Shown piece after piece: positions 25,141 through 44,604 of a DNA stretch of 44,708 nucleotides. Within the stretch, counting starts at the first letter, position 1; every line of letters starts with the position of its first letter. A program made the position numbers and the translations under genes. The stretch comes from Escherichia phage Ayreon. The notes beneath the pieces are model-generated. The model was not told the DNA's origin. It was given only the letters and a program-made list of their open reading frames with translations, and did no database searches. The stretch lies in the sequence record MF807953. The stretch is one strand, 5' to 3'.

Positions 25141-25613
25141 TGTTTGTGTTGTACACCGCCCAATCAACAGTGTCAATAGAACAAAGATTGCTGCATGTAC
25201 AAATGTTCTTTGGCTACAAATACACCTACTGATCATGTTCTGCTATGCTCTGATACCTCCAAAATGTACAATCAGCGGCATGAATTTTTCTTTGTACATA
25301 TGATTGTACATAATCAAAGAGACAGCAATTATGACAAGCCTTTTGGCCGCAGAGGTAGCGAAAAGAAGAACCTTTGCCATTATTTCTCACCCCAATAATT
25401 AAGCCAAAATTAAAGCTCTTTTACTCTTTCAAAATCCTTTCAGTTAATTGAGGTTGAGCCATATAACTCATTTAAATACATTTAGTTATGTGGCTTCTTT
25501 AATTGAAAATTCTTTCATGTAACTTTAAATCGATCTGCTTGCTTTCATCAAAAATCTGTACATGTGCTTGTACATAATGTACAAAACAGCAGAGGTGTTT
25601 TTTTATTTGTACA
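25141..25613. promoter_or_regulatory. Array of nine TGTACA motifs upstream of int (candidate protein-binding / att arm region)
   Basis: TGTACA occurs at 25141, 25187, 25256, 25284, 25296, 25557, 25569, 25578 and 25608 within about 470 bp, including the repeated unit TTGTACATAAT, in AT-rich non-coding DNA ending at the int start. Confidence 0.5.
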
Positions 25614-25622
25614 AGGTGAGTA

Positions 25623-26840
25623 ATGGCGCTGTCTGATGCGTGGTTGCGTTCAGTCGTTGGAAAGGAACGTGATAAGGTTTTGGTTAAATCCGATCGTGAT
25701 GGTCTGTCTGTCAGAGTATCACCGAAAGGTCGCGTAGTGTTCCAATATCGTTATCAATGGGCAGGGAAAGGTGAGCGCCTTGATATCGGAACTTACCCGG
25801 CAACTGGATTAAAAGAGGCCAGAGAAGAAGTTATCCGTCTCCGTGGTGAACTCGAGTCAAACCGCAATCCACGATTAGTCAGGCAGGCTGAAAAACGAAA
25901 AGCTACTGAAGCCATGACGGTAGAGTCTGTGATCCGTGCCTGGTATGAAGCATATTGTGTAAAAAATAAAAAAGGTTCTGAACAGATACTCCGCTCGTTT
26001 GAGCTGCACCTGTTCTCTAAAATCGGGAATATCCCTCACGATGCAGCTACATTGCATGATTGGTTAGAAGTCCTGGAGCCTCTTAGCACTAAGACTCCAG
26101 CAATAGCAGACCGATTGCTAATTAACGCAAAGCAGGCCCATGTCTGGGCGTATAAGAGAAAGCTCATTGAAACTCGCCCACTGTCGGATATCACGGGTAA
26201 AGATATGGATATCCGTAAAGGTCAGAAGAAACGGTTTCTGACACATGATGAAATTAAAATCCTTTATGCTGCGATCGATGGTTCTCGAATGGTTCCTAAA
26301 TACCGGGCCTTCATTAAACTATTGCTGCATTTTGGCTGCCGTAGTTCAGAGCTAATTACCGCCAGGGTGGACGATTTTGATTTCATTAATAAAGTATGGA
26401 CTGTACCACCAGAACGACATAAGACTGGGGAGATAACAGGCGAACCGCTAAAGCGGCCCATTATTGAACCGGTTGAAGAGCTTATAAAGTACGCTATTTC
26501 TATGAACAATGGTTCCGATATGCTTTTTACTAAGGAAGGAAGCAGGGAACCCGTTGGTCGGACATCATTGCAGTCGCTGCCTTACAATTTAATGCAGTAC
26601 GCATGGCGGCGTTTGGGGTATCAATTCCCTCATTGGTCTCTTCATGATTTGAGGCGAACAGCACGAACAAACTTTTCTGATCTTACTGCGCCTCATATTG
26701 CAGAAATAATGCTAGGTCATAAACTGCCAGGGGTATGGCAGGTTTATGACAAGAGCGATTATTTAGATGAACAGCGTAAAGCTTACCAGGCATGGTGGGA
26801 GAGAGTTGAATCGATAGTTACTTGTACTTGTTCAGACTAG
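25623..26840 (+). CDS. int: Tyrosine integrase (P4-type, with N-terminal arm-binding domain)
   Basis: 405 aa; N-terminal region typical of the P4-like integrase arm-binding domain (LSDAWLRS..GLSVRVSPKG..FQYRY); catalytic-domain features RSSEL, HDLRRTART and terminal Tyr region VYDKSDY. Confidence 0.9.
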   Translation: MALSDAWLRSVVGKERDKVLVKSDRDGLSVRVSPKGRVVFQYRYQWAGKGERLDIGTYPATGLKEAREEVIRLRGELESNRNPRLVRQAEKRKATEAMTVESVIRAWYEAYCVKNKKGSEQILRSFELHLFSKIGNIPHDAATLHDWLEVLEPLSTKTPAIADRLLINAKQAHVWAYKRKLIETRPLSDITGKDMDIRKGQKKRFLTHDEIKILYAAIDGSRMVPKYRAFIKLLLHFGCRSSELITARVDDFDFINKVWTVPPERHKTGEITGEPLKRPIIEPVEELIKYAISMNNGSDMLFTKEGSREPVGRTSLQSLPYNLMQYAWRRLGYQFPHWSLHDLRRTARTNFSDLTAPHIAEIMLGHKLPGVWQVYDKSDYLDEQRKAYQAWWERVESIVTCTCSD

Positions 26841-26973
26841 AACTGACATTTTGCATAGGCAGAACGCAATTATGCATATTGCGGTATAATCCCCTTCTTA
26901 AAACTGTAAGAACTGCTTGCTAATCCTTGCAGTTTTTGATTATAACATTTTTATTTGTTTATTAGGATTTTTG

Positions 26974-29106
26974 ATGGAACTGTTACAGGAACACGGGGCG
27001 ATACTTAAAGTTGTAATCATGCCTACTACTGGGGAACAAACCATAATCCAAGGTTTCGATACTGGCCTCCTCAACCCAGAGATATCCAACATTCTTTTTT
27101 TATTGGCCAAAACACCAAAAGAAATTAGTGAGATTTTTGTCAATGAAAATGATAACTTTCAGCCTACTCTAAGCGGGCTAAATCCTATTTTTTTAATATC
27201 TAAAGAAAATCTTGAAAAAATACCAGATATTTATCAAACGCCATTTTGCTTAATTTTTTGTGCTAAAGAAGATTTTTCGTATTTTTGTGCTTTAAAAAAA
27301 CATTTTGCTATACCACCTATAATTTGTTGCAATTCTAAACGCGCTGATCTACCACTTAATAAGATTAATAGTATATACTCATTTGATAAGGTGCTCTTCT
27401 CTCGGTTGAAATTCATTGAGGATAAAATAAGAAAAAATCACAGTGAAAAGAAAATATCAACGAAGTTGAAGCGAAGAGGGGCTTTATTTAATAAATCACC
27501 TTGGAGATCGACGCTTAACAATTCAACACTACCCAATGAGTTGTTAATTGAATCACTTGGCTATATGCTATCTCCACCAAAAAGAATTAAAGATGGTAGT
27601 AGCAAAAGAGAGTTTATAGAAATAATACTTCATAGCGTTGATGCATACACCGAATGTTTAAAGGAATTAGATATACCACTTCCAACGGAAGTCTTACTTT
27701 TTGCTCCGGGTATGCACTCTTTTTTATATGATAAAAATAATGACTTTTATGAGTTAATAACGGAAAATTTATCCACAATTGAGAAAAAATTCCTTATTGA
27801 TGGAGTGTTGAGGAATCCAGGCTATTCTGGAATTAGACTTGATATAAATTCAGATAGAAAAGAACTTTTTAAAAGTCCTGCTTTCCGTTACCTCACCTCA
27901 CTAAGACGAGCTGAAATGCGATTAACAACAGCTGCGATTACTTTATTTAGCATAAATAAAAAAATCCCAGCAATAAGATTGCCAAATGCAATAAATCATT
28001 ACTCCAATTATTTGAAAAATCTTGAAGATCTTGCAACTTCTTCTGGGATAAATAGTGAAGCATTCATCACTAAATCTAAAGCATTCAATACTGTTATTCG
28101 AAGAGCCCTTGGTTGCAAGTTGAGAACATATATAAGTAAAAACTATAGCGATTTGTCCTTTGTTTGTGATGTACCATTGGATTGGATTAGGTTTAATAAC
28201 ATACCTATAATGTTCAGTCATGAGATATCAAGAATAAATGCTACGCCTGGTAACGTTCTTCTACAGAGCGCCTCTGCTTTTCCGCGCGTTTTAGTAAAAG
28301 CATCTGAGTTGAGAAAGGTTTTAGTTATACGTTCTTTTGAGCCTGATGATCACTTAAAGTTCATATTAGAGAACGCAATTGAGATATTTAAAAAACAGAT
28401 GCCAGATCTTGATTGCGAGATTATTGATGTTAGATCGAAAGCTGAGTTTATTGATGCTCTAAATCAATATCAAGGTCATATTCTTGTTATGGATTGTCAT
28501 GGAAACCATGATGGCAATGGGAGTCATGGATGGTTAATAATAGGTGAGGATAAAGTGGACACTTGGAGTTTGAGAAAAATAGCAAGAATTCCTCCTATCG
28601 TAATTCTGAGTGCATGTTTAACATCTGCCCTAAGTGGTTCTCATGCCTCTGTTGCTAATGGCTTCGTTATAAGTGGTGCATTAAGTGTCATCGGAACATT
28701 ACTGCCTGTAAATGCGATAGACTCTGCTGTTTTTGTAAGTCGGTTGATCTACCGGTTTTACGAGTTTCCTTCGACGCTATCTACAAATTTTACACATGTT
28801 AATGTAAGGCTTTTTCTTTCTGTTTTTCTTAGGATGTCCTATGCAAGCGATTTAATAAGAGGATTTTTATCTGAAGATTTGATACCGAATAATTCATGGA
28901 AGAAAGATGCAGTTGATATTAACATGTATATAAACATGCTTCACCATGATTGGTATGATTATGTAATTAACAAATTGACGATGTTAACGGGGCTCACGAA
29001 AAAAGATGTACTTGATTTTATCGATAGAAAATTATTCATAACCGAAACTATGTGCTATAGCCAAATTGGATTTCCAGATGCAATCACAATTAGTCTTAAA
29101 GATTGA
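26974..29106 (+). CDS. Large cargo protein with C-terminal CHAT/caspase-like protease domain
   Basis: 711 aa from MELLQEHG. Strikingly low GC with Asn/Lys/Ile-rich composition. The C-terminal region has a caspase-fold His/Cys dyad signature: strand plus HG in ILVMDCHGNHDG and strand plus Cys in PIVILSACLTS, followed by GFVISGALSVIGTLLPVNAIDSAVFVSRLIYRFY, typical of CHAT domains. The N-terminal ~500 aa have no features I recognise. Confidence 0.65.
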   Translation: MELLQEHGAILKVVIMPTTGEQTIIQGFDTGLLNPEISNILFLLAKTPKEISEIFVNENDNFQPTLSGLNPIFLISKENLEKIPDIYQTPFCLIFCAKEDFSYFCALKKHFAIPPIICCNSKRADLPLNKINSIYSFDKVLFSRLKFIEDKIRKNHSEKKISTKLKRRGALFNKSPWRSTLNNSTLPNELLIESLGYMLSPPKRIKDGSSKREFIEIILHSVDAYTECLKELDIPLPTEVLLFAPGMHSFLYDKNNDFYELITENLSTIEKKFLIDGVLRNPGYSGIRLDINSDRKELFKSPAFRYLTSLRRAEMRLTTAAITLFSINKKIPAIRLPNAINHYSNYLKNLEDLATSSGINSEAFITKSKAFNTVIRRALGCKLRTYISKNYSDLSFVCDVPLDWIRFNNIPIMFSHEISRINATPGNVLLQSASAFPRVLVKASELRKVLVIRSFEPDDHLKFILENAIEIFKKQMPDLDCEIIDVRSKAEFIDALNQYQGHILVMDCHGNHDGNGSHGWLIIGEDKVDTWSLRKIARIPPIVILSACLTSALSGSHASVANGFVISGALSVIGTLLPVNAIDSAVFVSRLIYRFYEFPSTLSTNFTHVNVRLFLSVFLRMSYASDLIRGFLSEDLIPNNSWKKDAVDINMYINMLHHDWYDYVINKLTMLTGLTKKDVLDFIDRKLFITETMCYSQIGFPDAITISLKD

Positions 29107-36893: not shown

Positions 36894-37219
36894 TGACGAC
36901 GTTAACTCAATGCCAGCAGCAGGTGCTGGATATGCTGATTTCTTACCAGAAAGAACGTGGCTTCCCGCCAACCAATCAGGAGGTGGCAACCATGCTGGGA
37001 TACCGTTCGGTGAATGCAGCGGTGGAGCATCTTCGCGCACTGGAGAAAAAAGGCGTCATCACGATAAAGCGTGGCGTGGCCCGGGGGATAACGCTTCATA
37101 CCGCGGTGAAGGACGACGACAGCGAGGCTGTCGGGATTATCCGCTCACTGCTTGCCGGTGAGGAAAACGCAAGGCTGCGTGCAACCCACTGGCTACATGA
37201 GAGAGGCCTGAAAGTATGA
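36893..37219 (+). CDS. LexA N-terminal DNA-binding-domain-like protein (no peptidase domain)
   Basis: 108 aa from MTTLTQ; alignment by eye to the LexA winged-helix region (LexA [68 protein letters not shown] versus here MTTLTQCQQQVLDMLISYQKERGFPPTNQEVATMLGYRSVNAAVEHLRALEKKGVITIKRGVARGITL); no S24 domain follows. Confidence 0.65.
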   Translation: MTTLTQCQQQVLDMLISYQKERGFPPTNQEVATMLGYRSVNAAVEHLRALEKKGVITIKRGVARGITLHTAVKDDDSEAVGIIRSLLAGEENARLRATHWLHERGLKV

Positions 37220-37605
37220 AACTGATCCTGCCTTTCCCGCCCAGCGTGAATACGTACTGGCGACACCCTAACAAAGGGGCGTTTGCTGGTAAAAGCCTGA
37301 TAAGCACGGCGGGGCGCAAATTCCAGAGCGCGGCGTGCGCAGCAATAGTTGAGCAGTTACGTCGTCTGCCGAAACCAACGTCGGCACCTGCTTCAGTGGA
37401 GATCGTGTTGTTTCCTCCGGATAACCGGATCCGCGATCTGGACAACTATAACAAGGCACTGTTTGACGCCCTGACCCACGCGGGTGTGTGGGAAGACGAC
37501 AGTCAGGTGAAAAGAATGCTGGTGGAGTGGGGACCGGTTATCCCGGAAGGGAAGGTCGAGATCACTATCAGTAAGTACGAGAAAACGGCGGGTGCAGCCG
37601 CCTGA
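37216..37605 (+). CDS. rusA: Holliday junction resolvase RusA
   Basis: 129 aa; segments LPFPPSVNTYWRH, DLDNYNKALFDALTHAGVWEDDSQV and VEITISKYE match RusA-family hallmarks. Confidence 0.85.
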   Translation: MKLILPFPPSVNTYWRHPNKGAFAGKSLISTAGRKFQSAACAAIVEQLRRLPKPTSAPASVEIVLFPPDNRIRDLDNYNKALFDALTHAGVWEDDSQVKRMLVEWGPVIPEGKVEITISKYEKTAGAAA

Positions 37606-38435: not shown

Positions 38436-39431
38436 GTGACCGTGAGAGCACTACTGACCCCTGAAATTGCCCCGCGTATGGGGATCGTATTGTTCAGGCC
38501 AGGTTCAGAGCTGATGCCCCTGTTTATGCAGGGGCGTGTCCTGCTGGAGCCTGAGCCGGAACGTTATTCATCTTTCGCCAGTGGTGCCGTTCCGGCGGCA
38601 TCACAACCGCTGGCGGATGATCCTGCCGTTCGGGCCGTGTTCCGCAATGAGGCAGTGATCCGTCGTGCTGGTGGCGTGGAATGTCTTGAAAGCTGGTTAC
38701 TTCGTGAAAAAGGCTGCCAGTGGCCTCATTCCGACTGGCACAGCGAGAACATGACCACAATGCGACACGCGCCGGGCGCAATCCGTCTGTGCTGGCACTG
38801 CGATAACCAGCTGCGCGATCAGTTCACGGAACGGCTGGAATCAATGGCAACGGATAACTGTGCCCGCTGGGTGTTGTCTGTTGTGCGTCGGGATCTCGGT
38901 TTTGATGACAGTCACGTTGTGACAATGCCGGAACTGTGCTGGTGGCTGATTCGTAATGACCTGGCGGATGCCTTACCGGAAAGTGCAGCCCGTAAGGCAC
39001 TGAGATTACCAAAGCCTGTTGTGCCGTCTGTCACCCGGGAAAGTGACCTTGTGCCTTCGGTTCCTGCCACCAGCATCATCCAGGATAAAGCGAAAAAGGT
39101 GCTGGCGCTGAAAGTGGATCCGGAGTCGCCGGAGTCTTTTATGTTACGCCCAAAACGTCGCCGCTGGGTTAATGAAAAGTACACGCGCTGGGTTAAGACA
39201 CAGCCGTGTGCATGTTGTGGAAAGCCCGCTGATGATCCCCACCACCTGATAGGTCACGGTCAGGGTGGAATGGGAACAAAAGCGCATGACCTCTTTGTGT
39301 TGCCTTTGTGCAGAAAGCATCACGACGAGCTGCATGCGGATACCGTGGCATTTGAAGAGAAGTATGGCTCTCAGCTGGAGCTGATATTTCGTTTTATCGA
39401 TCGTGCGCTGGCAATTGGCGTATTGGCGTAA
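38436..39431 (+). CDS. DUF968-like protein with C-terminal Cys/His zinc-binding HNH-like motif
   Basis: 331 aa; C-terminal CACCGKPADDPHHLIGHGQGGMGTKAHDLFVLPLCRKHHDELH motif; position in the nin-like region before Q. Confidence 0.6.
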   Translation: MTVRALLTPEIAPRMGIVLFRPGSELMPLFMQGRVLLEPEPERYSSFASGAVPAASQPLADDPAVRAVFRNEAVIRRAGGVECLESWLLREKGCQWPHSDWHSENMTTMRHAPGAIRLCWHCDNQLRDQFTERLESMATDNCARWVLSVVRRDLGFDDSHVVTMPELCWWLIRNDLADALPESAARKALRLPKPVVPSVTRESDLVPSVPATSIIQDKAKKVLALKVDPESPESFMLRPKRRRWVNEKYTRWVKTQPCACCGKPADDPHHLIGHGQGGMGTKAHDLFVLPLCRKHHDELHADTVAFEEKYGSQLELIFRFIDRALAIGVLA

Positions 39432-39444
39432 GTGGAGAACGAGC

Positions 39445-40197
39445 ATGAACCTTGAAGCCTTACCAAAATATTACTCCCCAAAATCTCCAAAATTGAGCGA
39501 TGACGCACCGGCGACAGGCTCAGGTGGTTTAACGATTACGGATGTGATGGCTGCGCAGGGGATGGTGCAGTCGAAAGCACCGCTTGGGTTTGCCTTATTC
39601 CTGGCAAAAGTTGGTGTTCAGGATCCTCAATTTGCGATTGAAGGTCTGCTCAATTACGCGATGGCACTGGATAACCCGACATTGAACAAATTGAGTGAAG
39701 AAACCCGGTTACAGATCATCCCTTACCTTGTGAATTTTGCCTTTGCTGATTATTCCAGGTCTGCGGCAAGTAAGGCTCGCTGTGAGCATTGTGCTGGTAC
39801 TGGATTTCATAATGTATTGCGCGAAGTGGTGAAACACTCCAGAAGCGGGGAATCTGTTATCAAGGAAGAGTGGGTGAAGGAACTATGTCAGCATTGTCAT
39901 GGTAAGGGAGAAGTCAGCACAGCGTGCAGAGGGTGTAAGGGTAAAGGTATTGTCCTGGATGAAAAAAGGACCCGGCTTCATGGCACGCCTGTTTATAAGA
40001 TTTGTGGGCGTTGCAATGGAAACCGGTTTAGCCGTTTACCAACCACACTGGCGCGGCATCATGTCCAGAAGCTGGTACCAGACCTGACGGATTATCAGTG
40101 GTACAAAGGATATGCAGATGTCATTGATAAACTGGTTACAAAGTGCTGGCAGGAAGAAGCATATGCAGAGATACAATTGAGAAATGTGACAAGATAA
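39445..40197 (+). CDS. Q: Late gene antiterminator Q
   Basis: 250 aa from MNLEAL with a GGAG ribosome-binding site; Cys-rich zinc-binding region CEHCAGTG...CQHCHGKGEVSTACRGCKGKG...CGRCNG; followed by a candidate pR' and tR' terminator. Confidence 0.75.
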   Translation: MNLEALPKYYSPKSPKLSDDAPATGSGGLTITDVMAAQGMVQSKAPLGFALFLAKVGVQDPQFAIEGLLNYAMALDNPTLNKLSEETRLQIIPYLVNFAFADYSRSAASKARCEHCAGTGFHNVLREVVKHSRSGESVIKEEWVKELCQHCHGKGEVSTACRGCKGKGIVLDEKRTRLHGTPVYKICGRCNGNRFSRLPTTLARHHVQKLVPDLTDYQWYKGYADVIDKLVTKCWQEEAYAEIQLRNVTR

Positions 40198-40228: not shown

Positions 40229-40257
40229 TTGCATTTTTCAAAAAATATGGATAAGAT
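40229..40257 (+). promoter_or_regulatory. Candidate late promoter pR' (Q-utilisation region)
   Basis: TTGCAT - 17 bp - TAAGAT between the Q stop and a strong terminator. Confidence 0.4.
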
Positions 40258-40304
40258 TTTCCCAACGATGGGCTTTGTATGTCTACCGTTGATAAGATTT
40301 AAGA

Positions 40305-40329
40305 ACCCGCCACTGAGCGGGTTTTTTTG
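40305..40329 (+). terminator. tR'-like rho-independent terminator
   Basis: Hairpin acccgc-cactga-gcgggt followed by a T7 run. Confidence 0.8.
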
Positions 40330-40486
40330 TGCCAGATGTCTCATGAAACTATGAAATGGATTGGTGCGTTAAACATTTTTTCTTATTATCTTTTAGATTT
40401 TGGAGAGATGGTTAACGTCTGTATTCCAGAAACTCGATGATTATTTAATAAATTAGTTTCAATGATGCTTCTAGGTTATGACTGTA

Positions 40487-40903
40487 ATGAAAAAGGTATT
40501 AATAGCAGCGATAGGTTTTTGTTTAGTTGGTTGTGCAGGTATGAAATTACCTGAGTATTCGCAAGTTAAAGCAAGTCCGTATTATACAGATTGCCGTGCG
40601 TTTGCCATGGATGTTTATAAAAATGATGGATACAGCAAAATTGCGAAAACTACTATCCTTAGCATGGATGATGTGAAGGCTAGATATATTGTGACAGGGT
40701 GTGTAGTTGCTATGGGGAAAAACACTGTAGAGGAAATCAAAGCTGATCTCTCTGCTAAAGGGAGTTCTTTTGGGCTTATCAGTGGAGCTTGTTCTAGTGC
40801 GGCATGTCGGGTTGATGTAGAGCAGCAAATGAACGCTTATGTACTTGGTAGTTATTATGCTGCAAATAAAAAATTCCCGGATAAAATGAAAGCAGAGTTT
40901 TAA
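40487..40903 (+). CDS. Lipoprotein (moron cargo)
   Basis: 139 aa from MKKVLIAAIGFCLVGCAG: signal peptide with lipobox LVGC; AT-rich codon usage unlike the flanking phage genes; bracketed by two copies of the same terminator hairpin. Confidence 0.7.
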   Translation: MKKVLIAAIGFCLVGCAGMKLPEYSQVKASPYYTDCRAFAMDVYKNDGYSKIAKTTILSMDDVKARYIVTGCVVAMGKNTVEEIKADLSAKGSSFGLISGACSSAACRVDVEQQMNAYVLGSYYAANKKFPDKMKAEF

Positions 40904-40980: not shown

Positions 40981-41005
40981 AACCCGCCACTGAGCGGGTT
41001 TTTTG
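40981..41005 (+). terminator. Second copy of tR'-like terminator
   Basis: About 27 bp near-identical to 40305-40329 (aacccgccactgagcgggttttttgt). Confidence 0.8.
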
Positions 41006-41102: not shown

Positions 41103-41330
41103 ATGTTAACCAGAAGGGAAAAAGACATGCTAAAACAGCAAGATATGACAGAAACCGCCGCCGCAGTCCTTCATTTCTTACCTGCTGACAAGTGGGTAAC
41201 GCCACGCATGATGACGAGAACTACCGGAGTAAGCGAAGCCCGGTGCCAGTTAATACTGACTCAGTTAGTTCTGGCGGGTCTGGCGAAGGATAACGGCGGG
41301 TACGGGAATAAATTCAGACGCTGCCAGTAA
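41103..41330 (+). CDS. Hypothetical small protein (75 aa)
   Basis: ORF with a GAAGGG/AAAGA-type ribosome-binding region upstream, positioned ahead of the methyltransferase. Confidence 0.4.
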   Translation: MLTRREKDMLKQQDMTETAAAVLHFLPADKWVTPRMMTRTTGVSEARCQLILTQLVLAGLAKDNGGYGNKFRRCQ

Positions 41331-41480
41331 TGGCGGTTTCCTGCTGTGAAAATGGGCGGCTGGTGGGTGTTGGTAGCACCTGCCAGCCATTCGCTCATGC
41401 TTACTGGTCACAAGCGAACCATGGCCCACTGCTTTAGCGCAAAAGCAGAGTGAGCCTACCAGAGTTACGCTTACTGATCC

Positions 41481-42533
41481 ATGAAAAATACTGTAAAAAT
41501 AAACAGTGTTGATTTAATCAACGCTGATTGCCTGCATTTTATTCAGTCCCTGCCTGATGATTCCATTGACCTGATTGTTACCGATCCGCCGTACTTCAAG
41601 GTGAAACCCAACGGCTGGGACAATCAGTGGAAAGGGGACGAAGATTACCTTAAGTGGCTGGACCACTGTCTGGCCCAGTTCTGGCGGGTGTTAAAACCTG
41701 CCGGAAGCCTTTACCTGTTCTGTGGGCATCGCCTGGCATCTGATATTGAGATCATGATGCGTGAACGTTTCAACGTGCTTAACCATATCATCTGGGCGAA
41801 GCCGTCCGGACGTTGGAATGGGTGTAATAAAGAAAGTCTGCGCGCATATTTTCCTGCCACAGAGCGCGTTCTGTTTGCTGAACATTACCAGGGGCCATAT
41901 CGCGGCAAAAGTGACGGCTATGCAGCAAAAGAAAGGGAACTCAAACAGCACATAATGGCACCGCTGATATCGTATTTCAGGGATGCTCGTGCCGAACTGG
42001 GTATAACGGCAAAACAAATTGCCGAAGCCACAGGTAAGAAAAATATGGTTTCCCACTGGTTTGGTGCCAGTCAGTGGCAGTTGCCGAATGAGGCTGACTA
42101 TCGGAAGTTACAGGCACTGTTTTCCCGTATAGCGGCAGAGAAGTTTCAGGAACAACAACTGGAACAACCACACCACCAGCTGGTGGCATCTTATGATTCA
42201 CTGAATCGTAAATATTCTGAATTGCTGGATGAGTTTAAATCTCTCCGGCGCTATTTCTCCGTATCAGTCTCCGTGCCTTATACCGATGTCTGGATGCATA
42301 AACCCGTTCAGTTCTACCCGGGGAAACATCCGTGTGAGAAACCGGCGGATATGCTCAGGCAAATAATCAATGCCAGTAGTCGACCTGGTGATCTGGTTGC
42401 TGATTTTTTTATGGGATCCGGTTCCACAATAAAAGCAGCAATGGCGCTGGGGCGTCGGGCCTTAGGTGTTGAGCTTGAGTCAGAGCGGTTTAACCAGACA
42501 GTGAAAGAGATAAACGAGCTGGTGGGGAAATAA
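41481..42533 (+). CDS. DNA methyltransferase (N6-adenine/N4-cytosine amino-MTase, orphan)
   Basis: 350 aa; catalytic motif IVTDPPYF near the N-terminus and AdoMet-binding motif DFFMGSGST near the C-terminus; no restriction endonuclease partner nearby. Confidence 0.85.
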
Positions 42534-42600
42534 TCTGGTGGCCACGTCAGGTGGCCTTTTTATTTCCATTACACAGCACCCGCATCTGCGAGGTGGGGTT

Positions 42601-42816
42601 ATGAAATCCATGGATAAGTTAACAACGGGTGTCGCCTATGGCACCTCAGCAGGTAGTGCCGGGTACTGGTTTTTACAGTTGCTCGATAAAGTCACGCCCT
42701 CACAGTGGGCGGCAATAGGTGTGCTGGGTAGTCTGGTATTTGGCCTGCTGACGTACCTGACAAACCTTTATTTCAAGATTAAAGAAGATAAGCGCAAGGC
42801 TGCGAGAGGTGAATAA
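42601..42816 (+). CDS. S: Holin (phage 21 S21-type pinholin)
   Basis: 71 aa from MKSMDK (dual-start motif); sequence [62 protein letters not shown] matches my recollection of the phage 21 holin. Confidence 0.85.
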
Positions 42817-43313
42817 TGCCTCCATCATTACGAAAAGCAGTTGCTGCTGCTATTGGTGGCGGAGCAATTGCTATAGCATCAGTGTTAATCACTGGCCCAA
42901 GTGGTGACGATGGCCTGGAAGGTGTCAGCTACATACCATACAAAGATATCGTTGGCGTATGGACTGTATGTCACGGACACACCGGAAAAGACATCATGCT
43001 CGGTAAAACGTATACCGAAGCAGAATGCAAAGCCCTCCTGAATAAAGACCTTGCCACGGTTGCCAGACAAATTAACCCGTACATCAAAGTCGATATACCG
43101 GAAACAACGCGCGGCGCTCTTTACTCGTTCGTCTACAACGTGGGTGCTGGCAATTTCAGAACATCGACGCTTCTTCGCAAAATAAACCAGGGCGATATCA
43201 AAGGCGCATGTGACCAGCTACGTCGCTGGATATACGCTGGCGGTAAGCAATGGAAAGGCCTGATGACTCGTCGTGAGATTGAGCGTGAAGTCTGTTTGTG
43301 GGGGCAACAATGA
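42816..43313 (+). CDS. R: SAR endolysin (lysozyme with N-terminal signal-anchor-release domain)
   Basis: 165 aa; Gly/Ala-rich N-terminal hydrophobic SAR segment [20 protein letters not shown] followed by a lysozyme-like domain. Confidence 0.85.
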
Positions 43314-43777
43314 GCAGAGTAACCGCGATTATCTCCGCTCTGGTTATCTGCATCATCGTCTGCCTGTCGTGGGCGGTCAATCATTACCGTGATAACGCCA
43401 TCGCCTACAAAGAACAGCGAGATAAAAAAGTCAGTGAGCTGAAGCAGGCGACCGCCACCATTACTGACATGCAGCAGCGCCAGCGTTCTGCTGATGCACT
43501 CGATGCTAAATACACGAAGGAGTTAGCTGATGCGAAAGCTGAAAATGATGCTCTTCGGCGCAAGCTTGATAATGGTGGTCGGGTGTTCGTCAAAGGAAAA
43601 TGCCCTGTGCCATCCTCAGCCGAAACCTCCAGCGCCTCCGGCATGGGCAATGATGCCACCGTCGAACTCTCTCCAGTTGCTGGACGAAACGTTCTCGGTA
43701 TCCGGGACGGAATTATCCGCGACCAAACAGCACTGAGAACGCTTCAGGAATACATCAGGACGCAATGCCTTCGATGA
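43310..43777 (+). CDS. Rz: i-spanin Rz
   Basis: Start [30 protein letters not shown] matches lambda Rz; ATGA overlap with the endolysin stop. Confidence 0.85.
43530..43736 (+). CDS. Rz1: o-spanin Rz1 (lipoprotein embedded in +1 frame of Rz)
   Basis: MRKLKMML start, lipobox VVGCSS and a Pro-rich segment [11 protein letters not shown], entirely inside Rz in another frame. Confidence 0.75.
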
Positions 43778-44406
43778 TAGCGATAATTTTACTCATCATC
43801 CTTCACATCTGGCTCTGTAGACAGGATGGTGATCACTTCTGGAGTGAATCCAGATTAAACATCTCATTGCTGATGCTTGATATTGAGCATCTTGCGCGCG
43901 GTAAGGGGCTGCGTTGAGATAAGGGCCAGTCATTACAAATACCAGGATTTAGCCTCGCATTCGCGGGGCTTTTTATTGCCATTACAAAAGCCACTCCCTA
44001 CAGAGTGGCTTTGATAATGGTTTATACCCTACACGGGATAGCTTAACTGATATCCCTTTTAACGGATAAAGGTATTCAAGCCTGACACATCATGCGCTGT
44101 ATCGTCGCCGTATTCCCGTATTAACAGAGACCGTAGCCCGACGGGGAACTCCTTCTGCGCGAGTGTGCGGGAATAATCAAAAACGATGCACACCGGGTTT
44201 TTACCGCGTTTATGGTTCGCGGGTTTGTCCCTCATGCTCGCCAGTCCTGTGCGGGGGTGGAAGAAACAGGACACTTACACAGATTCTTGTGGGCACGATG
44301 CTATGCCTTTCTGGATTATCCCGATGCCATTCATGCAAGGCGTTGTATCAGACGTTCGTCAGAGCTGTCAGGCTGACGGGTCCTCCCGGTGGGGTGGCCT
44401 GCCACG

Positions 44407-44494
44407 GGGTGAAGGAACTATGTCAGCATTGTCATGGTAAGGGAGAAGTCAGCACAGCGTGCAGAGGGTGTAAGGGTAAAGGTATTGTGCTGGA
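44407..44494 (+). repeat. Displaced copy of an internal Q-gene segment
   Basis: 88 bp identical except for one mismatch to 39872-39959 (inside Q, encoding ELCQHCHGKGEVSTACRGCKGKGIVL). Confidence 0.9.
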
Positions 44495-44558
44495 GACATT
44501 ACCGGATATTCTGGAACGTGACTGCGGCCTGCAGCCTGCTGCTGTGAGCCGTGTTCAG
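44487..44558 (+). repeat. Displaced copy of an internal small-terminase gene segment
   Basis: 72 bp identical to 359-430 (inside the Nu1-like gene, encoding LETLPDILERDCGLQPAAVSRVQ); overlaps the Q copy by an 8-bp microhomology gtgctgga. Confidence 0.9.
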
Positions 44559-44604
44559 CCGTGGAAAAAGGCTAGTTTTTGAAATTTCATTCGTCATCAC
44601 CACT

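Follow-up and report, generated by a model that had tools for sequence, protein, structure and literature searches.

Introduction

The adenine methyltransferase M.EcoGII, encoded on an Escherichia coli prophage, methylates adenine in any DNA context and also accepts RNA and DNA:RNA hybrids as substrates, and its native strain does not express it, with growth being slowed upon expression (PMC5778455). M.EcoGI is nearly the same protein (333 of 349 residues identical to M.EcoGII), and the authors of the M.EcoGII study proposed that the enzyme defeats restriction during infection (PMC5778455). A lack of sequence specificity, silence in the native host, and harm upon expression have been described as properties of the family (PMC5778455; PMC12707154), and, in the ST131 strain EC958, prophage Phi4 carries a 99% homologue of M.EcoGI for which neither a transcript nor a methylation motif was found (PMC4659465). 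Among enzymes whose recognition site is proven, the nearest is M.PflMI (CCANNNNNTGG), which is only 27% identical to M.EcoGII, and every purified reconstructed ancestor methylated both DNA and RNA, with no discernible motif on RNA for Anc291 and SUPREM (PMC11551740). Here, we analyzed a methyltransferase gene of Escherichia phage Ayreon, located at positions 41481-42533 of a 44,708-nucleotide (nt) stretch of DNA (sequence record MF807953; this whole stretch is called the window below). An earlier, sequence-only reading had described the gene as an orphan amino-methyltransferase of unknown target specificity that might protect phage DNA from host restriction or alter host gene expression. Judged by its sequence, the gene is an ordinary and common prophage copy of the characterized M.EcoGII/M.EcoGI family, and thus of an already known kind, and we consider it very probable that it encodes a non-specific N6-adenine methyltransferase that is silent in the lysogen, made late under the antiterminator Q, and hypermethylates progeny DNA against restriction. 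The leader RNA upstream of the gene, which is supported by covariation and has no Rfam match, looks like the only new part of the case.

Results

A single open reading frame (ORF) occupies 41481-42533 on the + strand, starting at an ATG and encoding 350 amino acids (aa). Its catalytic and cofactor motifs are intact: IVTDPPYF contains DPPY at aa 35-38 (nt 41583-41594), and DFFMGSGST spans aa 308-316 (nt 42402-42428), with FFMGSG at aa 309-314. The domain order of motif IV, a middle domain presumed to recognize the target, and motif I is that of the beta class, to which the sequence-only reading had assigned the protein from the position of DPPY N-terminal to the S-adenosylmethionine-binding motif. 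Both the coordinates and Pfam agree with this assignment, as PF01555 (N6_N4_Mtase) matches aa 29-341 over profile positions 1-220 of 221 at 145.9 bits (E = 2.2e-42; curated cutoff, 26.7 bits). Upon comparison with solved structures in the PDB, the two terminal lobes matched beta-class adenine methyltransferases (E values of ~1e-24 to 1e-13), and the ~160 aa between the lobes matched no solved structure. The NCBIfam models for YhdJ (NF008572; 109.9 bits against a cutoff of 292) and CcrM (NF050803; 68.1 bits against a cutoff of 830) likewise covered the lobes only and missed their equivalog thresholds. The gene is under strong purifying selection, with a ratio of nonsynonymous to synonymous substitution rates (dN/dS) of 0.06-0.09 against orthologues at 81-82% identity, a distance at which dS is near saturation. 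An N-terminal extension or leader peptide was considered and rejected: an in-frame TGA (41475-41477) lies two codons before the ATG, and the frame above it holds 7 codons without a start codon before another TGA is reached.

Comparison with the M.EcoGII and ancestor sequences of Supplementary Table S1 (PMC11551740) established the protein as a member of the M.EcoGII/M.EcoGI family. It is identical to M.EcoGII at 281 of 349 positions (81%; 90% similar) and co-linear with it from the first residue to the last, with identity being highest in the N-terminal lobe (88%), followed by the C-terminal lobe (80%) and the middle domain (75%); there are two gaps of one residue each, both at likely reading errors in the source PDF, and the middle domain contains no real indel. 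The window protein shares 89.6%, 87.5%, and 71% identity with Anc291, Anc289, and Anc284/SUPREM, respectively, compared to 84% (84.3% for Anc291), 82%, and 70% for M.EcoGII, and it is 81-82% identical to natural 349-aa IMG/VR alleles that are themselves ~95% identical to M.EcoGII. Bracketed between characterized relatives in this way, the window enzyme is most likely non-specific for the context of the adenine. The specificity that had been called unknown can hence be read from a family whose characterized members methylate adenine in any context (PMC5778455).

The gene is widely distributed. Phage cdtI encodes a 100% identical protein (orf56), and the DNA of the gene is 99.4% identical to mEp460_053, 97% to SfV orf48, 99.9% to the JJ1886 copy (WP_000799656.1), and 100% to copies in many E. 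coli chromosomes. Among 5426 complete E. coli genomes, 1265 (about a quarter) contained a match to the methyltransferase, which was nearly full-length in 1158. Many Stx2a phages (for example, TL-2011c and ArgO145; records H97-H104) keep only the last 35 codons of the gene, and, at locus L195 (2134-2460), the upstream leader is fused to the last 58 residues of the methyltransferase, both of which point to recurrent internal deletion of the gene.

A different reading would make the protein a sequence-specific orphan methyltransferase with a defined motif, possibly TGTACA, which acts against one restriction system or marks phage sites. Most PF01555 members are site-specific, the best structure and NCBIfam matches of the protein are specific enzymes (RsrI, MboIIA, CcrM, and YhdJ-like), conservation is lowest in the middle domain (75% identity to M.EcoGII), and the family has a specific nearest relative in M.PflMI (CCANNNNNTGG). 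However, the specific enzymes match the catalytic lobes only and stay far under the NCBIfam cutoffs, and M.PflMI is 27% identical to M.EcoGII, whereas the window protein is 81% identical to it and co-linear. The hexamer TGTACA, which the sequence-only reading had tentatively linked to the enzyme, does not show overall enrichment in the window either, with 14 copies against 9.2 expected and 14 copies reached in 7 of 100 shuffles. Nine of the 14 copies lie at 25150-25613 in two groups about 260-315 base pairs (bp) apart, where they sit within longer repeats such as TTGTACATAAT, and this cluster stops 10 nt short of the gene (25623-26840) for a tyrosine integrase that has an arm-binding domain, 16 kb away from the methyltransferase gene. 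The cluster thus probably represents the arm-type integrase sites of attP and is unrelated to the methyltransferase, which, as a context-independent enzyme, would have no need for a TGTACA motif. Overall, we give a sequence-specific enzyme a slim chance. Next to the integrase gene, a 729-aa ORF (26917-29106) with a weak match to the CHAT (caspase-like protease) domain (E = 5.8e-6) may be an accessory or defense gene at an att-proximal moron site.

The methyltransferase gene lies behind the late promoter pR' and the terminator tR' of a lambdoid late region, and its placement between a moron and the lysis cassette, already proposed by the sequence-only reading, was borne out by Pfam and PHROG matches of the neighboring genes. 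All genes and elements assigned from Q to the Rz gene are on the + strand. The gene for the late antiterminator Q (39445-40197, with the start taken from the mEp460_050 annotation) is of the PF03589 type (Pfam Antiterm, E = 9.6e-54; phrog_127, E = 2.7e-108). Past the Q gene, 130 nt can be aligned with lambda pR', where lambda reads GGGTAAATT-TGACTC-AACGATGGG and the window GGATAAGAT-TTTCCC-AACGATGGG at equal spacing. The resulting candidate pR' (40229-40272) consists of a -35 element TTGCAT (40229-40234), a 17-nt spacer, a -10 element TAAGAT (40252-40257), and, 6 nt after the latter as in lambda, a downstream element AACGATGGG (40264-40272); the lambda promoter reads TTGACT..TAAATT, 6 nt, AACGATGGG. 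In lambda pR', AACGAT is the sigma-dependent pause element that Q uses. The candidate site was not listed in a generic promoter scan.

Downstream of this candidate promoter, the same 24 nt occur in two tR'-like intrinsic terminators. Copy 1 (40304-40328) has the form ACCCGC-loop-GCGGGT followed by a U run (fold of -14.1 kcal/mol, z = -3.85), and copy 2 (40981-41004), identified by terminator scan and fold, is the left edge of a module that comprises orf75 and the methyltransferase gene. Homology with phage cdtI, which has a different Q gene, starts exactly at 40981, and homology with the Stx2a phage EH1846 starts at 40994. Given this arrangement, the methyltransferase gene is predicted to be the first long gene that a Q-modified polymerase reads from pR'. 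The same order of Q, a small ORF, the methyltransferase, and then a holin or tRNA-stx genes is found in mEp460, cdtI, phiNP, Stx2a EH1846, 1720a-02, phiP27, Hafnia yong2, and Morganella IME1369_02, and, in phiKO2, both a late promoter and a terminator are annotated directly before the methyltransferase copy. As the gene stands behind pR' and tR', the silence of the family in lysogens would require no special mechanism.

This arrangement bears on the suggestion that the enzyme alters host gene expression in the lysogen. A lysogenic-conversion moron that is expressed in the lysogen and epigenetically reprograms the host would be in keeping with a gene in the moron insertion zone downstream of pR' that is followed by a terminator-like hairpin, and M.EcoGIII, another prophage methyltransferase, reportedly influences the expression of numerous host genes. 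Yet, from tR' copy 2 to the ATG, the sole promoter-like site is a weak 9-of-12 match inside orf75, the close relatives are not transcribed in the lysogenic state (PMC5778455, PMC4659465) and harmful when expressed, and methylation of adenines genome-wide is implausible as a regulatory signal. With the gene behind the tR' terminators, we regard lysogenic conversion as very improbable. The hairpin in question (42540-42565; GGCCAC-GUCAG-GUGGCC and then UUUUUAUUU; found by terminator scan, with a fold of -12.2 kcal/mol and z = -2.5) separates the stop codon of the methyltransferase gene from the start of the holin gene; it would be read through in a Q-antiterminated transcript and could also form the boundary of an independent transcript.

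The two tR' copies flank a lipoprotein-like moron of 141 aa with the lipobox LVGC (40478-40903; phrog_4748, E = 7.5e-91; no Pfam match). Many loci with an identical methyltransferase lack this moron and have Q at -1359 instead of -2036, that is, 677 nt closer, and the 24-nt terminator on both sides of the moron resembles a scar left when a moron of 677 bp inserted at tR'. The small conserved protein encoded by orf75 (41103-41330; phrog_331, E = 3e-26) is possibly a winged helix, with Pfam hints that are all sub-threshold (winged-helix MarR_2, TrmB, and DnaD_N; E values of 0.06-0.2). Among 80 IMG/VR loci, 78 encode it upstream of the methyltransferase, and, of the remaining two, one has only 58 nt of upstream flank. 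The same holds for about 50 of 78 species genomes, such that orf75 accompanies the leader and methyltransferase in most loci of several genera, and phiP27, Hafnia yong2, and Morganella IME1369_02 encode it as well. It is absent in phiKO2 and in L174, L185, L196, and L213, the four loci of the holin or C5-methyltransferase type whose upstream ORFs were listed.

On the other side of the methyltransferase gene, the lysis cassette consists of an S21-type holin that starts with MKSM (42601-42816; Pfam Phage_holin_2_1, E = 2e-35), a lysozyme (42816-43313; Pfam Phage_lysozyme, E = 1.8e-45), and an Rz spanin (43298-43777; Pfam Phage_lysis, E = 8.6e-29), all three also matched in PHROG. Scanning both the flanking ORFs and the nin region, we found no cognate restriction endonuclease, and with orf75, holin, lysozyme, and Rz as neighbors, the orphan status given to the methyltransferase in the earlier reading stands. 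The nearest nuclease-like genes are ordinary nin-region genes located 2-4 kb upstream, namely, a DUF968 protein with a marginal HNHc_6 match (38436-39431; 26.9 bits against a cutoff of 26.6) and RusA (37216-37605), neither of which fits as the nuclease partner of a type II restriction-modification system. Near the right end of the window, 88 nt (44407-44494, within the ORF 44163-44582) are 98.9% identical to part of the mEp460 Q gene; their equivalent in the window is the Q region at ~39872-39959 encoding KELCQHCHGKGEVSTACRGCKGKGIVL, and mEp460 has no such duplicate at the corresponding place.

From orf75 to the ATG of the methyltransferase gene, there is a spacer of 150 nt that shows higher conservation than the proteins that flank it. 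We found it to contain a conserved structured 5' leader RNA (41346-41480), which was delineated from alignments (A1 and A3), RNAalifold, covariation counts, and a covariance model (R1). From RNAalifold and manual reading, its parts on the + strand comprise a closing helix P0 (UGGGC/GCCCA; 41353-41357 with 41424-41428), a 12-bp hairpin P1 (41358-41369 with 41377-41388), a 9-bp hairpin P2 (41390-41398 with 41410-41418), and a downstream hairpin P3 (41430-41435 with 41442-41447), after which follow a UGAGCCUACCA box (41451-41461) and CUGAUCC (41474-41480) immediately before the ATG. In the blocks AAAUGGGCG, CCAGCC, GGCCCA, GCGCA-AAAGC, and GAGCCUA, little or no variation is seen between E. coli and Klebsiella phiKO2, where they are kept beside an enzyme that is only 62% identical to the window protein. 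A scan of species-representative genomes yielded 80 loci across Enterobacterales at 62-93% protein identity. A usable start was available for 70 of them, and in 53 of these, AATGGGC stood about 130 nt (range, 128-134) upstream of the ATG; GGCCCA and GAGCY, where present, stood about 58 and 29 nt before it. The Photorhabdus and Xenorhabdus copies of the methyltransferase lack the leader element.

The structure of the leader is supported by covariation. In a MAFFT alignment, 17 of 33 pairs changed on both sides, compared to 10.3 in shuffles (a count reached in 0 of 500), and the covariation score was 0.134 against at most 0.099 for slid partners. Using the R1 alignment, which was fitted to the covariance model and hence leans towards it, 90% of cells paired and 19 of 32 pairs covaried, compared to 9.3 in shuffles (0 of 500), at a score of 0.165 against at most 0.082 for slid partners. 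Frequent G-U pairs indicate that the + strand is the RNA strand. Across 633 kb, R1 gave one match per locus, which always ended at the methyltransferase ATG. In the minimum-energy fold of the window, the 3' half of P2 pairs instead with the 20 nt before the ATG, and this alternative helix, which was derived from the window's own fold, paired in 71% of cells at a score of 0.120 against 0.102 for shuffled and at most 0.089 for slid partners, which is weak comparative support. For the window sequence taken by itself, the three-way junction and the closed start site would be mutually exclusive. A hairpin that sequesters the ribosome-binding site, formed by the GAGCC box with AGGC or GCUU, appeared plausible by eye in the Hafnia, Providencia, and phiKO2 types and weak in the E. 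coli type.

To follow the leader into other lambdoid phages, we carried out two pattern scans of IMG/VR and filtered them with R1. Fifty-nine leaders of a first subtype were obtained, and all representatives checked precede a methyltransferase of the M.EcoGII family. Another 38 leaders, at 36-65 bits, form a second subtype that, where examined, lies a few hundred nt after Q and a terminator and 130-270 nt before the next gene, which is usually a holin of one of several unrelated families, including lambda S-like and S21-like ones. At four subtype-2 loci (L174, L297, L300, and L344), a 344-aa ORF with C5-cytosine-methyltransferase motifs (GSVCSGIEAAS, FPC) comes next and then a holin, indicating that the slot recruits unrelated methyltransferases. 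The subtype-2 set independently supports P1 and P3, with 15 covarying pairs (shuffles, 9.7) and a score of 0.207, while slid partners reached at most 0.053. The leader loci fall within the ranges L091-L170, L171-L250, and L291-L363. A blastn search with the subtype-2 leader against deposited phages returned only Pantoea phage PA-1, such that this collection is little informative on the spread of the subtype. The conserved GUGAAAAUGGGCG is unlikely to be an extended -10 promoter: subtype 2 does not retain its TG (CGTGAAAAT), and P0 is changed in a compensatory manner in one sequence.

Lambda itself carries a degenerate copy in the S leader (NC_001416 45031-45093), where P1- and P2-like hairpins, preceded by GUGAAAGCGGGUG, lie 95-155 nt upstream of S, while P0 is missing and the match to R1 reaches only 20 bits (E = 3.6e-4 in 2.7 kb). 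This upstream junction is distinct from the lambda sdi element, which we take to be a small hairpin at the start of S. As the gene behind the leader may be a methyltransferase, a holin, or a C5-methyltransferase-like gene, we conclude that the element marks the first gene after tR' in many lambdoid phages. Covariance-model searches against Rfam 15 gave no match at an E value of 1 or better for 41331-41480, the subtype-2 locus L196, or lambda, and, in papers concerning small RNAs of prophages (AgvB/AsxR, Pas) or structured RNAs ahead of holin genes, we found no description of the element.

The presence of a conserved structured RNA leader, together with the ability of M.EcoGII and the reconstructed ancestors to methylate RNA and DNA:RNA hybrids in vitro, could also suggest that, in vivo, the enzyme mainly acts on RNA or single-stranded DNA, such as transcripts of the host or late transcripts of the phage, and not on the double-stranded DNA of the progeny. 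Against this stand the far lower activity reported on RNA, with about 30% of adenines methylated compared to about 90% on DNA, and the lack of a known RNA target in vivo, and we deem such a role most unlikely.

Discussion

Our analysis favors a non-specific adenine methyltransferase that acts on progeny DNA late in the phage cycle. In this scenario, a polymerase starting from pR' (at about 40264) would halt at the tR' hairpins unless modified by Q, such that no enzyme would be made in the lysogen. After induction, the enzyme would be produced alongside the lysis and morphogenesis genes, and a large share of the adenines in the replicating phage DNA would become methylated before packaging. Progeny DNA would then enter the next host already protected against many restriction systems that are sensitive to adenine methylation, which would require neither a cognate nuclease nor a recognition motif. 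The structured leader RNA directly upstream probably adds a layer of post-transcriptional control. By analogy with its relatives, the window enzyme would be unspecific, silent in lysogens, and toxic upon expression. Protection from host restriction, one of the roles considered by the sequence-only reading, is the best-supported function, and the step to protected progeny DNA is one of logic.

Several points weigh against this reading. As the sequences of M.EcoGII and the ancestors were taken from a machine-read PDF, in which a few reading errors are evident, the identities are approximate, and the placement within the non-specific clade was made from pairwise identities. At 81% identity, the specificity could in principle differ, with the middle domain being the most diverged. 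The promoter assignment relies on similarity to lambda, and the hairpin at 42540-42565 would likewise be expected of a moron that is self-contained and expressed independently. Furthermore, our literature search found no paper showing hypermethylated virion DNA or restriction protection in vivo.

The window gene adds one more allele group to a characterized family that is sold as a reagent, and little is at stake in that respect. There are, however, consequences for how methylomes are read. Surveys of lysogens would not be expected to see the enzyme, and the absence of a motif is not readable as inactivity; since silence in the lysogen is expected, a lack of methylated motifs in lysogens, which the sequence-only reading had named as evidence against the enzyme, would wrongly count against an active one. 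Its location as the first long gene behind pR' and tR' would explain silence until induction in ordinary lambda terms. As for the leader RNA, it is more conserved than the protein that follows it and is common to holin genes of unrelated families, and it could offer a handle on the level or timing of the first late gene in lambdoid phages. We consider it an evenly balanced question whether this ~100-140-nt element constitutes an undescribed class of cis-acting structured RNA in lambdoid phages that gates the first gene after tR', built as a three-way junction of an invariant closing helix and two covarying hairpins with a third hairpin downstream. Such a leader would act on the translation or the stability of that gene's message, perhaps through recognition of a ligand or protein, and would thereby help to time methylation and lysis.

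Compared to known systems, the site-specific enzymes of the YhdJ, M.BceJIV (which we take to be structure entry 8URK), and CcrM type share the catalytic fold class with the window protein, with a best structure match of E ~3e-24 over the two lobes. They show no similarity in the middle domain, the scores against their models fall far below the NCBIfam equivalog cutoffs, and they constitute a different family. Mom of phage Mu is an analogue in being silent in the lysogen, toxic if mis-expressed, late, and broadly protective against restriction (a comparison made in PMC12707154), but it is an unrelated protein with an unrelated chemistry and not a homologue. The ancestors Anc291 and Anc284 (SUPREM) are synthetic, and their non-specificity was shown on RNA, with DNA activity measured in bulk only (PMC11551740). 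Phages cdtI (orf56), mEp460 (mEp460_053), and SfV (orf48), as well as JJ1886 (WP_000799656.1), carry their genes in the same slot between Q and the holin as the window gene, although these entries are annotations ("DNA methylase," "unknown") of which none states a specificity. The closest characterized system remains M.EcoGII of E. coli O104:H4 C227-11 (Murray et al. 2018, PMC5778455), together with its paralogue M.EcoGI. M.EcoGII resembles the window enzyme in length (349 versus 350 aa), in the arrangement of DPPY, middle domain, and FxGxG, in its 81% full-length identity, and in its carriage on a lambdoid prophage. The two differ in ~19% of residues, mostly in the middle domain, and the specificity of the cdtI/mEp460/SfV type is predicted from its relatives. 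The IMG/VR alleles of the M.EcoGI/GII type have the same leader RNA directly upstream as the window gene.

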